Below are positions 21,479-25,604 of a DNA stretch of 64,000 nucleotides, in pieces. Both the position numbers and the translations under genes were made by a program. The DNA is from Escherichia phage JS98. Every line of letters starts with the position of its first letter. Within the stretch, counting starts at the first letter, position 1. The notes beneath the pieces were generated by a model that was not told the origin of the DNA, searched no databases, and saw nothing but the letters and a program-made list of their open reading frames with translations. The DNA lies in sequence record NC_010105.1. The stretch is one strand, 5' to 3'.

Positions 21479-21757
21479 TTATAGCTTTTTAAGCTTACGA
21501 CAATAAGAATAGAACACGTCGTTAAAATTATATTCAACCCAATTCCTCTGTATAGGCGAGGTAATGGAAAGCATATAATGTGCTTTAATTAAATCCATTC
21601 CATTTTTATTAGGGCATTCTTTATTATTAGCATTATACGTCGCTGCTACAACTTCTATCTCTCTTTTGTAAGCCGCATCATCCATGATGGGCGAAAGAAC
21701 AATATAAGAGATGGCCACAGCGAACGCTAGAATTAAAATCTTTGAATTTAGGTCCAT
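21479..21757 (-). CDS. small secreted/periplasmic protein (signal peptide)
   Basis: N-terminal KILILAFAVAISYIVLSPI hydrophobic leader. Confidence 0.4.
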   Translation of the reverse strand: MDLNSKILILAFAVAISYIVLSPIMDDAAYKREIEVVAATYNANNKECPNKNGMDLIKAHYMLSITSPIQRNWVEYNFNDVFYSYCRKLKKL

Positions 21758-21764
21758 AGTACCC

Positions 21765-22337
21765 TCAACTCGTTATTTCTATCCAGTGCTTCCTGCACAA
21801 TGACACGTAAGAATCGTTGCCACCTATAGAAACTTGGGCTCCGTCCTTAATTGCGACACCATCTTGGACCCTAGCAGTCATAGTAGCTTTACGGCCGCAA
21901 TGGCACACACCTTTGTACTCAACGAGTTTATCTGCCGTAGCGAGTAATTCAGCAGAACCAGGAAACAGTTTACCCTGAAAATCAGTTCTTAGCCCGTAAC
22001 ACATAACCGGAACATTATAATTGTCTACTATCTTTGCCAGTTGTTTTATCTGTGCAGGTTCTAAGAACTGTGCTTCATCCACAAACACACAGTGGATATC
22101 TTTTTGAGATTCAGCCCAACGATAGAACTCGTATAGGTCCATATCCGGAGTCACTGCATTAGCCTCTTGACTAATCCCTATACGAGACGAAATGGTATGG
22201 CTTGATTCTCTATTGTCTATCGCAGGCTTTAAAAGGAGCACGCCCATACCATGTTCTTTGTAGTTATGAGCTGCCGTTAGCAATGAAGCGGTCTTACCTG
22301 AGTTCATTGCCGCATAATGAAAATAAAGTTGAGCCAT
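21765..22337 (-). CDS. tk: thymidine kinase
   Basis: 190 aa; P-loop AAMNSGKTASLL, VFVDEAQFL and C-terminal Cys cluster; colinear with T4 Tk. Confidence 0.93.
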   Translation of the reverse strand: MAQLYFHYAAMNSGKTASLLTAAHNYKEHGMGVLLLKPAIDNRESSHTISSRIGISQEANAVTPDMDLYEFYRWAESQKDIHCVFVDEAQFLEPAQIKQLAKIVDNYNVPVMCYGLRTDFQGKLFPGSAELLATADKLVEYKGVCHCGRKATMTARVQDGVAIKDGAQVSIGGNDSYVSLCRKHWIEITS

Positions 22338-22346
22338 ATTACCTTC

Positions 22347-22532
22347 TTAAAGCGTATTCACATAAGCTATTAATTCGTTTTCTTTCTCATCAAACCGATC
22401 AGCAAATTCTTCTTGCTGTTCAGGAGATAGCGGACCATATTCATCGTAAAAAGCGTTTGCTTCGGTATGTTCATCCAAAAGCTCGTGAATAAGCTCAAAC
22501 AATCTACTTTTCTGACTAATACTTAAACTCAT
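22347..22532 (-). CDS. hypothetical acidic protein (61 aa)
   Basis: Intact ORF. Confidence 0.4.
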   Translation of the reverse strand: MSLSISQKSRLFELIHELLDEHTEANAFYDEYGPLSPEQQEEFADRFDEKENELIAYVNTL

Positions 22533-22735
22533 TTAGGTTCACCATATCGCACAAATTTAGGATGTTCGCAATAACCAGAATGAAAACCTTCACCCTTATG
22601 ATTGGAACATCCTTTATTAGAACAGTACCACCAGTAATCAAATTCGCATTCCATTCCATCGTTGCATAAAGCTGCGATTACTGGCCATTCGCATTTTTCA
22701 CATTTAGCCGTTTTAAGAATTCTGGCTTGGCTCAT
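22529..22735 (-). CDS. Cys-rich small protein (about 68 aa)
   Basis: Start at MSQARILK with ATGA overlap to upstream stop; eight Cys. Confidence 0.4.
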   Translation of the reverse strand: MSQARILKTAKCEKCEWPVIAALCNDGMECEFDYWWYCSNKGCSNHKGEGFHSGYCEHPKFVRYGEPK

Positions 22736-22944
22736 AACCATTGCACCTTTAAGCAATATTCTTCTACATGCTGTTTACGTTTATTTTTATCTATAAAAGT
22801 ATATTCAACGTATTCACCAATATACCATTTATCGGTGTTATGCTGACTTTTTATAGGGCATTTAGTTACTCGAGTTTCGGTCCAGCGCCGAATAATTTCC
22901 GCTTTGTTTTTAGGGTCAAACGGATGTGGGTAATGTGCTTTCAT
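22732..22944 (-). CDS. hypothetical protein (70 aa)
   Basis: Intact ORF. Confidence 0.35.
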   Translation of the reverse strand: MKAHYPHPFDPKNKAEIIRRWTETRVTKCPIKSQHNTDKWYIGEYVEYTFIDKNKRKQHVEEYCLKVQWL

Positions 22945-23395
22945 AATCCACCACTATTAAATCAATATCAGGGGTAAACATATCAATTAATTGAGAAACC
23001 TTGTCCCAATCACCACCAGCAATACCACAACCAATGCGAGGAATATAAATTCTTGGTTTAAACAAAAGGTCATTTGCTTGTAGATTTAATTCTATCATAC
23101 AGTTTACTAAAGCACCGTAATCAAGATTAGGGCCTGGTTCGTATTGGGTGTATAAATTATAGCACATTGCAAATCCATTAGGCTTATGTTTAAAAACAAT
23201 AGACATATCACCTAATTTATCACGAGAGCCGTATTCGGTAGTAGTCTTATCAATTTCTAAAATTTTAGGATAAGCTCTTGCTAATTGACCCGCTACACCT
23301 GAACCCATAGTGTGAAAACAATTACACCCATGTGCAATAATATTACCTTGGAGAAACAGGGCGACGATATCGCCCTTAATATAATCAATAATCAT
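22916..23395 (-). CDS. macro-domain protein (ADP-ribose binding/processing fold)
   Basis: N-terminal IIAHGCNCFHTMGSGVAGQL and later IPRIGCGIAGGDW match the two glycine-rich macro-domain motifs. Confidence 0.55.
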   Translation of the reverse strand: MIIDYIKGDIVALFLQGNIIAHGCNCFHTMGSGVAGQLARAYPKILEIDKTTTEYGSRDKLGDMSIVFKHKPNGFAMCYNLYTQYEPGPNLDYGALVNCMIELNLQANDLLFKPRIYIPRIGCGIAGGDWDKVSQLIDMFTPDIDLIVVDYESTLPTSV

Positions 23396-23748
23396 TTAGA
23401 GTTTAGCCCTCGGTTGTAAGAGTCAACGAGTCTGTCTACCATAGACGCGCACATTTCTTTGTACTTTTTATCAGATGGAACACATTCAGTAACGTTTAGA
23501 CGTTGCTCGTATCTTTTAGAAAGAGTTTTCTCTTTCATTCGGCGATGCTCGACGTCGTTCTGCCCATCTTTAAAAGCAGCTGTTATTTTTGAACTGAATT
23601 CAATAACACATTCAGTATTACTCGGATGACAATAATCTTTTGCTGTACGGGTGGCATACTCGACAATTGAATTATTTGTATCATCAACCTGTGATGCTAA
23701 TACTCCCGGAGCAATCAACATAAGCGCTATAGTCATCTGTTTAATCAT
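23392..23748 (-). CDS. hypothetical secreted protein (118 aa)
   Basis: Signal-like MIKQMTIALMLIAPGVLASQ. Confidence 0.4.
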   Translation of the reverse strand: MIKQMTIALMLIAPGVLASQVDDTNNSIVEYATRTAKDYCHPSNTECVIEFSSKITAAFKDGQNDVEHRRMKEKTLSKRYEQRLNVTECVPSDKKYKEMCASMVDRLVDSYNRGLNSK

Positions 23749-24288
23749 TTAATATACCGCCTCAAACATCTTTTTAGATTTTAGGTAATTGGCCTTTTCT
23801 AGAACTTCGGAAGCATATTTACTGCCTGCTTTGACATTCCAGCCCGCATTATAAGAAGCAATCGCTTTTCTCAGGTCACCTTTGTGAACATTAATCCAAT
23901 AAGACAGCTCAATGTAGGCCCAAGAGGCACTGTTCTGTCGTTTTTGGACCATACGAATTATTTCTTTGTCTGACATCTTCCAACCTACCTGTTGAACACG
24001 ACTTCTTAACGTAGGCAAGTAATTTTGGAACATGCCATAAGCATGGTGCTTATCTTTATTTAAACCTTGATTAATTCCAGCAGATGATTCCTGCCATAAT
24101 AATCCGGCCATTATATATCCTAATCCTTTTTGATTAGGGTTTTCTTTGAACTTTCCCGACTTTTGGTATTGTTCACCGAAAGCATACGCATAATGTAAAT
24201 TATCGAGTTGTTCATTACTGAAAGTAGGCTCTACGCTATAGGCAGACATACTAACTGTCAATAGTAAAGTGGCTAATACTTTTTTCAT
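23749..24288 (-). CDS. secreted lytic-transglycosylase-like protein
   Basis: Signal peptide MKKVLATLLLTVSMSAYS; WQESS and AYNAG motifs resemble SLT-domain catalytic and substrate-binding motifs. Confidence 0.45.
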   Translation of the reverse strand: MKKVLATLLLTVSMSAYSVEPTFSNEQLDNLHYAYAFGEQYQKSGKFKENPNQKGLGYIMAGLLWQESSAGINQGLNKDKHHAYGMFQNYLPTLRSRVQQVGWKMSDKEIIRMVQKRQNSASWAYIELSYWINVHKGDLRKAIASYNAGWNVKAGSKYASEVLEKANYLKSKKMFEAVY

Positions 24289-24300
24289 GAGACCTCATTA

Positions 24301-24759
24301 TTAAAGATAGATTACTTTCGTGCTGGTTTTACCTTCTAAACGTTTAGAGTTAACAAATGCCATACGACATTTTAATGAATATCCTTTATCAGGATGTTTA
24401 CGATCTACGGTCATACCCAACCATAAGGTTTTATCGGTAATCTCGAGACGCAGTGGACGATACACTTTACCTGGGACAATTTCAGATTCTACGTCAGGAA
24501 GAGGCTCCTGGATTAAAAATTCATGGATTTCTTTAACATGATTGTGGAGCTTCTTGAACAAAGAGAAAACATATTTTTCGTCAATTTCACGTTGGATAGC
24601 ACGGTCCAACAAGTGATTAGAGTACTTAATAAAGAAAGCTGGGACACCGCTCTTAATGGCGGCTTTTTTGATGGACGCGTTAAGTTCACGAAATTCGGTT
24701 TCGAACTGACGACGTAATTTGTTGCGGCGGATGAATACTTCTGAATTAATTTCTGACAT
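24301..24759 (-). CDS. regB: endoribonuclease RegB
   Basis: Start at MSEINSEVFIRRNKLRR (ATG 24757-24759); colinear with T4 RegB. Confidence 0.88.
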   Translation of the reverse strand: MSEINSEVFIRRNKLRRQFETEFRELNASIKKAAIKSGVPAFFIKYSNHLLDRAIQREIDEKYVFSLFKKLHNHVKEIHEFLIQEPLPDVESEIVPGKVYRPLRLEITDKTLWLGMTVDRKHPDKGYSLKCRMAFVNSKRLEGKTSTKVIYL

Positions 24760-24778
24760 TTTGTAATCTCCTGTAGTT

Positions 24779-24816
24779 GATAGGTCTATAGTACCATGTC
24801 TACAGGAGATGTAAAC
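24779..24816 (-). promoter_or_regulatory. conserved early-promoter cassette (PeSL-like) with inverted repeat TCCTGTAG/CTACAGGA
   Basis: Minus-strand GTTTACATCTCCTGTAGACATGGTACTATAGACCTATCAACTACAGGAG upstream of regB. Confidence 0.55.
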
Positions 24817-24821
24817 TGCTT

Positions 24822-25100
24822 TTAGTATTTTTCTTCGGGTTGGAAAACAGAACGACAGGCCCACATGGAGGCTTCTTTCAAGCGTTCTATTGCCGTACGA
24901 ATCTGGGCGAGACGTTCATGAGTGAGGTCGAATTCTTCATCACTCATTTTATCAACACCTGAGCATGTAAAGGCTTCAACGTATTCTTCTTCTAATGCTT
25001 TAAAGATTAAGCCTAATCGAACTTCAGCATCTTTAATGGCATTCACTTTACTGATTTTATCGTCGGTATGTGGCTTGTAACCCTTGATATCTTCAATCAT
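24822..25100 (-). CDS. hypothetical small protein (92 aa)
   Basis: Intact ORF between denV and regB. Confidence 0.4.
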   Translation of the reverse strand: MIEDIKGYKPHTDDKISKVNAIKDAEVRLGLIFKALEEEYVEAFTCSGVDKMSDEEFDLTHERLAQIRTAIERLKEASMWACRSVFQPEEKY

Positions 25101-25315
25101 TTCACTTCCTCATCAGATGCAATATCATATTCTACAAAACGAAGGCCATCGTATCCACCACTAACAGAGATATACGTAGTCGGGTAAACAATTTCTTTAC
25201 CATTCCATTGGCCACCGTCCCAACATTCCATAAAGCCTTGTTCGCCCTGTTCGTGGAACCAGTCAACAAACATCTTCAGGGCTTCATCAGAGCCTTCAAT
25301 TGTCAATTTAGACAT
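25097..25315 (-). CDS. hypothetical protein (72 aa)
   Basis: Intact ORF. Confidence 0.35.
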   Translation of the reverse strand: MSKLTIEGSDEALKMFVDWFHEQGEQGFMECWDGGQWNGKEIVYPTTYISVSGGYDGLRFVEYDIASDEEVK

Positions 25316-25604
25316 ATTTTTTCCAGTCAGAAATCATATGAATCTCTTGGTCATACGTCAAGAGACTGCGAGTTATAATACCCTTACAAGGCCCAGAGAT
25401 GAACTCGAGGGTGAAGTAAGGAACCTGTTTCATTAATCGGATACTAGGAGCGTGGCATCTAAAACGAGAGCCCTTAAAGGGCCCTGACATGAATACGTAT
25501 TCTAATGGATAGAAATAAGCATATTCGAAATTTGCAGTAAGGTCCTCTCTTCGAACCTTACGTGAGAAATAACAGAACTCAAAAAGTTCTTCATCGGTCA
25601 TCAT
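25308..25604 (-). CDS. hypothetical protein (98 aa)
   Basis: Intact ORF. Confidence 0.35.
   Translation of the reverse strand: MMTDEELFEFCYFSRKVRREDLTANFEYAYFYPLEYVFMSGPFKGSRFRCHAPSIRLMKQVPYFTLEFISGPCKGIITRSLLTYDQEIHMISDWKKYV

Follow-up and report, generated by a model that had tools for sequence, protein, structure and literature searches.

The tk.4 locus of phage JS98

We analyzed a 64,000-nucleotide stretch of the genome of Escherichia phage JS98 (NC_010105.1), hereafter the window, and within it an open reading frame (ORF) that a first-pass annotation had taken for a phage macrodomain gene that might reverse ADP-ribosylation-based host defense. The ORF starts with ATG, lies on the minus strand at 22916..23395 and encodes 159 amino acids; no plus-strand ORF of at least 30 amino acids that overlaps it exceeds 69 amino acids. 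The gene and its elements are as follows.

22916..23395, minus strand: tk.4 / adfM ortholog, encoding a 159-amino-acid single-domain macrodomain protein of the ALC1-like class
23282..23341, minus strand: loop-1 motif IIAHGCNCFHTMGSGVAGQL, residues 19-38, holding H22, N25 and the first Gly-rich loop
23144..23158, minus strand: NLYTQ motif, residues 80-84, codons AAT TTA TAC ACC CAA
23006..23044, minus strand: loop-2 motif IPRIGCGIAGGDW, residues 118-130, the second Gly-rich loop
23392..23395, minus strand: ATGA junction, overlap of the tk.4 start codon with the vs stop codon, read from the DNA

Both glycine-rich motifs singled out by the first-pass annotation stand verbatim in the translation, and the first of these loops is typical of macrodomain ADP-ribose-binding clefts. 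The ATGA overlap with the upstream gene that it had proposed is real: the tk.4 start codon spans 23395-23393 and the vs stop codon, TGA, 23394-23392, and the coordinates of the two genes in T4 likewise overlap by 4 nucleotides (vs from 61386, tk.4 to 61389). At its other end, tk.4 overlaps the start of tk.3 (22944) by 29 nucleotides in the window (22916..22944) versus 4 in T4. Its placement “next to tk” (21765..22337) was only loosely right: three small genes, tk.1, tk.2 and tk.3, lie between, hence the name tk.4. A sigma-70 promoter and terminator scan of 21500-25500 returned 12 promoter-like sites versus 11.6 expected from shuffles, and so says nothing on transcription units.

Profile searches and structure prediction bore out the macrodomain assignment, with matches well beyond chance. 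The Pfam Macro model (PF01661) matched residues 22-136 over model positions 2-117 of 118 with 34.2 bits (cut-off 22; E=2.7e-8), and PHROG 335 matched at E=1.2e-70. An AF2 model built on a family alignment of 49 sequences (mean pLDDT 93.5, pTM 0.88) predicts a three-layer alpha/beta/alpha macro fold whose central sheet is mixed and whose cleft is lined by two Gly-rich loops, and a Foldseek search of the PDB with this model placed TARG1, Poa1p, BT1257 and macrodomains of DarG at the top (TM about 0.68-0.76). In both NCBIfam and PADLOC the highest-scoring model was DarG, with no more than 27.8 and 28.4 bits respectively and with the match confined to the macro part of the model (positions 1-142 of 338 in NCBIfam NF048014, whose equivalog cut-off is 250 bits); control DarG proteins scored 416 and 477 bits and adjoin darT, as in the darT-darG pair of control locus L003. 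Because its scores are so low beside those of the controls and only the macro part is matched, the window protein is related to the macrodomain of DarG but is no DarG itself. Filing it as DarG was rejected on four counts: 27.8 versus 250 bits, no C-terminal domain, no darT neighbor, and Gln in place of Lys80.

By position as well as by sequence, the gene is orthologous to T4 tk.4. Its product is 56% identical to T4 Tk.4 over 155/155 aligned residues without gaps (E=8e-69) and has four more C-terminal residues. The matching gene order runs on the same strand in the T4 reference annotation (rI.-1, rI, rI.1, tk, tk.1, tk.2, tk.3, tk.4, vs, vs.1, regB), and in both phages tk.4 sits between vs and tk.3 within the tk-regB block; the Vs and Tk.3 products share 45% and 71% identity, respectively, with those of T4, and the Pfam and PHROG assignments of the neighbors agree with T4 (TK, DUF7438, Phage_zn_bind, DUF7202, valyl-tRNA synthetase modifier). 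By megablast, 21000-25000 matches Escherichia phage MN04 at 99% identity across the entire query, and it is 96-98% identical to JS10, dhaeg, IME281 and CLB_P2, all Dhakavirus-type T-even phages. The record of JS10, which is 98% identical, labels the gene tk.4; other records call its product “hypothetical protein”, “phosphatase” or “macro domain protein”. T4 Tk.4 has the same His, Asn, Gln and Gly-loop residues as the window protein, whose second loop (GCGIAGGDW) is nearer the family consensus than that of T4 (GAGIGKGNW).

A Gln-type active site and a probable counter-DarT role

DarTG systems stop phages through ADP-ribosylation of phage DNA. AdfA (61.2) and AdfN (30.3) counter DarTG1 only, yet T-even phages also resist DarTG2 (PMC11257639/PMC11825919, Nat Commun 2025). 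The HIDEN-SEQ preprint fills this gap by supplying the missing T-even factor: when a T4 transposon library was grown on a host expressing DarTG2, only tk.4 emerged as a significant hit, and a clean tk.4 knock-out sensitizes T4 to DarTG2, whereupon the gene was renamed adfM, for anti-DarT factor Macrodomain (10.1101/2025.11.20.689424). The suggestion of the first-pass annotation that the gene acts against DarT is thus supported, and is also already known, since it has been published for the direct ortholog, which T4 needs for DarTG2 resistance. On the host side, a Citrobacter plasmid darG (locus L002) used as a DNA query had no match among 5,426 complete E. coli genomes; this says nothing on the prevalence of DarTG2, because darG genes diverge beyond the reach of blastn.

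To place the active site we used an alignment of the window and T4 proteins with PDB-derived reference sequences and the PhiKZ gp104 construct (PMC13309987). In it, Q84 of the window protein falls on the catalytic Lys of DarG (K80), TARG1 (K84) and PhiKZ gp104 (in FPTKDNW), and on Gln85 of SCO6735; the position of the catalytic D125 of TARG1 is taken by A126. For TARG1, a profile alignment agrees on both positions. H22, N25 and Q84 align with His24, Asn27 and Gln85 of SCO6735. Among database homologs aligned at the respective position H22 is kept in 118/118, N25 in 118/118 and Q84 in 120/120, and N25 and Q84 persist at 29-38% identity in Felixounavirus, Otagovirus, Pakpunavirus, Agtrevirus and one Vibrio phage. 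The homolog of Vibrio phage K491 (L007 301..795) has Gln for His22 (MAQGCNC) and keeps N25 and Q84, a possible natural experiment on the importance of the His.

SCO6735 and BT1257 are marked out by Gln at the Lys80/Lys84 position; these Gln-type members of the ALC1-like macrodomains cleave ADP-ribose from thymidine in DNA (PMC9411070). SCO6735 efficiently hydrolyzes DarT-made thymidine-ADP-ribose in vitro and rescues cells from DarT toxicity; its activity is wholly lost in Q85A and Q85E and near-completely lost in N27S, while His24 lies near the active site and the loss in H24Y comes from disrupted structure rather than from a demonstrated catalytic role (PMC9411070). The backbone of Val/Ile25 places the proposed catalytic water in this subclass, and the mobile loop after the Gln is about 5 residues longer in SCO6735 than in DarG and TARG1, with Lys89 and Lys94 tied to DNA binding (PMC9411070). 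The phage family has an invariant Gly23 where SCO6735 and BT1257 have Val/Ile25, and the window and T4 proteins show a 6-7-residue gap opposite the SCO6735 loop “MKTGSKG”, with Lys89 and Lys94 missing. Strict membership of the SCO6735 subclass was rejected for these two reasons, the short loop without its lysines and the Gly; the window protein probably works like SCO6735 without being filed in that subclass.

The closest reference by pairwise score is BT1257 (44 bits), followed by SCO6735 (36 bits), and the most distant is PhiKZ gp104 (12 bits). SCO6735 from Streptomyces coelicolor and BT1257 from Bacteroides (PDB 5E3B, 2FG1/2AFC) are 27-28% identical to the window protein; they are cellular, whereas the window protein is phage-encoded. 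DarG of DarTG2 (PDB 5M3I, 5M31) combines Lys80, catalytic in T. aquaticus and M. tuberculosis DarG, with a C-terminal DarT-binding domain and an adjacent darT, none of which the window gene has. Human TARG1/OARD1, which likewise removes thymidine-linked ADP-ribose (PMC9411070), shares the fold class and has a Lys84/Asp125 dyad in contrast to Gln84 and Ala126 here.

PhiKZ gp104, also called AdfM, is like the window protein a phage-encoded free-standing macrodomain; it counters DarTG2, and its removal of DarT2-made ADP-ribose from DNA was shown biochemically (PMC13309987, Cell Rep 2026). It is, however, DarG-like, with Lys where the T-even proteins have Gln, and it scores only 5 bits against T4 Tk.4. 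Equating the AdfM of T4 with that of PhiKZ was rejected because of these scores (5-12 bits) and the different key catalytic residue. As judged from score and residue pattern, the name AdfM covers two different macrodomain lineages.

We suggest the following mechanism. The phage would express the free-standing macrodomain early, together with the rest of the tk-vs gene block. Once host DarTG2 is triggered, the DarT2 toxin ADP-ribosylates thymidines in single-stranded phage DNA and blocks replication; the phage macrodomain would then most likely take up the ADP-ribose moiety in the Gly-rich cleft and hydrolyze the thymidine-ribose bond, returning unmodified DNA and acting as an orphan stand-in for the antitoxin DarG. 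Its chemistry probably differs from that of DarG and TARG1, with their catalytic Lys, and probably resembles that of SCO6735: invariant Q84, held by N25 beside H22, may position the distal ribose for water-mediated cleavage. Overall we consider it likely that the window gene, the Dhakavirus ortholog of Tk.4/AdfM, encodes a macrodomain that hydrolyzes DarT2-made thymidine-ADP-ribose, substituting for DarG with SCO6735-like chemistry.

Our analysis establishes the ORF, the predicted fold, the class, the orthology, the synteny and the residue pattern; that the window ortholog counters DarTG2 as T4 Tk.4 does, and does so catalytically, we infer. Several points weigh against this assignment. The genetic evidence comes from one preprint and one DarTG2 system, and its authors word enzymatic removal of ADP-ribose from DNA as “seems likely” (10.1101/2025.11.20.689424). 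The window protein has neither the catalytic Lys of DarG and TARG1 nor the Asp of TARG1, and relative to SCO6735 it lacks the extended mobile loop linked to DNA binding and has Gly for Val25. Specificity could also differ, because identity to T4 Tk.4 is only 56%.

The Gln-type active site that we assign to T-even Tk.4/AdfM from sequence is a refinement going beyond the literature consulted, and a Gln-type rather than a Lys-type site sets which mutants and substrates matter. The novelty that remains beside it is that phages likely recruited two macrodomain types independently. A broader proposal, which we advance tentatively and stop just short of favoring, is that T-even Tk.4/AdfM and its phage relatives (Felixounavirus, Otagovirus, Pakpunavirus, Agtrevirus, Vibrio phages) form a third, phage-typical ALC1-like subgroup, Gln-type and short-looped with an invariant H-G-C-N-C, that removes thymidine-ADP-ribose independently of lysine; anti-DarT2 macrodomains would then have been recruited at least two times independently, as the Gln-type of T-even phages and the Lys-type, DarG-like protein of PhiKZ. 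If so, the Gln-type might, like SCO6735, also act on protein-linked ADP-ribose, giving an anti-defense range wider than DarTG2.

Alternative functions

The alternative that survives best, though we regard it as unlikely, is a stoichiometric one: an antitoxin mimic that neutralizes DarT2 mainly by binding it (interaction-inhibition) and not by cleaning DNA. Such inhibition is possible because catalytically dead SCO6735 still inhibits DarT; the dead Q85A, DarG K80A and TARG1 K84A proteins all do so in vitro, SCO6735 most strongly (PMC9411070), and the T4 knock-out phenotype is compatible with either binding or catalysis. However, the 159-amino-acid protein has no counterpart of the DarG C-terminal DarT-binding domain, and H22, N25, Q84 and both Gly loops are conserved across distant phages, as catalysis predicts, unlike a surface for binding a variable toxin.

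A small-molecule hydrolase, either an ADP-ribose-1''-phosphate phosphatase or an O-acetyl-ADP-ribose deacetylase, tidying NAD-derived metabolites during infection, is marginally less probable again. Yeast Poa1p, known as an ADP-ribose-1''-phosphate phosphatase, is of the same fold class, has the H-x-C-N-C motif of loop 1 in common with the window protein and is a strong match in both sequence and fold. Both T4 Tk.4 (“phosphatase; contains A1pp phosphatase motif”) and PHROG 335 (“phosphatase”) carry labels to this effect, and the Otagovirus and Pakpunavirus homologs sit beside a nicotinamide phosphoribosyltransferase gene. The “phosphatase” annotation, however, rests on homology only and reflects the similarity to Poa1p. 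No source of ADP-ribose-1''-phosphate in T4-type infection was identified, T4 tRNA repair not being known to make one, and the phenotype of the T4 tk.4 knock-out is DarTG2-specific (10.1101/2025.11.20.689424).

At a slightly lower probability still, the protein might reverse or tune ADP-ribosylation of protein or RNA, whether by phage Alt, ModA or ModB or by host defenses based on ADP-ribosyltransferases. Alt, ModA and ModB modify arginine, however, and macrodomains are not known to cleave the arginine linkage. T-even phages do carry ADP-ribosyltransferases (PMC9503650), and SCO6735 and TARG1 also hydrolyze Glu/Asp-linked protein ADP-ribose (PMC9411070), but the tk.4 phenotype is reported for DarTG2 sensitivity only (10.1101/2025.11.20.689424). 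Degradation of immune signals derived from ADP-ribose (gcADPR or His-ADPR of Thoeris, or products of other TIR proteins), the other route that the first-pass annotation had raised, found no support and is highly improbable.

Distribution and neighboring genes

The family is widespread. By tblastn, 2761 phage records match the tk.4 protein, and the window protein has 796 database homologs; 41% of myoviruses encode a macrodomain (PMC9503650). Recognition of the Dhakavirus ortholog mainly improves annotation, as GenBank has “hypothetical protein” or “phosphatase”, and it aids forecasts of host range where strains carry DarTG2, a point of relevance to cocktails for phage therapy.

Among the distant homologs, those of two Pseudomonas phages, phiPsa267 (Otagovirus, L006 1..810) and ZCPS13 (Pakpunavirus, L009 1..780), lie one small ORF downstream of the nicotinamide phosphoribosyltransferase gene, whose product belongs to NAD+ salvage; the arrangement suggests a linked NAD/ADP-ribose counter-defense module. 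Two others continue past the macrodomain at the C-terminus, by about 100 amino acids in Felixounavirus Ro111lw (L005 295..1074, where the coding sequence is cut at the locus end) and by about 40 in Agtrevirus pSal-SNUABM-02 (L008 238..837).

The genes around tk.4 in the window are as follows; tk.3 and vs serve only as context, and vs has no part in the macrodomain function.

22732..22944, minus strand: tk.3 ortholog (DUF7202), downstream; Pfam E=2.5e-37; 71% identity to T4 Tk.3 from residue 1
23392..23748, minus strand: vs ortholog (valyl-tRNA synthetase modifier), upstream of tk.4 in the same direction; 45% identity to T4 Vs; PHROG 1256
23749..24288, minus strand: vs.1 ortholog, 179 amino acids; signal-like N-terminus MKKVLATLLLTVSMSAYS; no Pfam match at E<=0.01
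24301..24864, minus strand: regB ortholog; ORF as called from an upstream GTG start, 187 amino acids

An internal ATG of regB (MSEINSEV...) would give about 152 amino acids, and the T4 RegB coding sequence is 153 amino acids (462 nucleotides with the stop); the upstream GTG extension is probably untranslated, because the internal ATG yields a T4 RegB-like length.

The first-pass annotation had called the gene upstream of tk.4 a secreted-protein gene. By identity to T4 Vs and by PHROG it is instead the vs ortholog, but its N-terminus is indeed signal-peptide-like, which makes that impression understandable: a hydrophobic stretch is followed by a small-residue motif, MIKQMTIALMLIAPGVLA/SQ (VLA before SQ) in the window and MTKILVLCIGLISFSASA/SAD (SASA before SAD) in T4, with Kyte-Doolittle 12-residue maxima of 2.5 for window Vs and 2.7 for T4 Vs (T4 gene at L001 5387..5734, minus strand). 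One would not expect such a Sec-signal-like N-terminus in a protein that reputedly modifies or binds the cytoplasmic valyl-tRNA synthetase. According to the HIDEN-SEQ preprint, T4 depends on vs in minimal medium specifically (10.1101/2025.11.20.689424).
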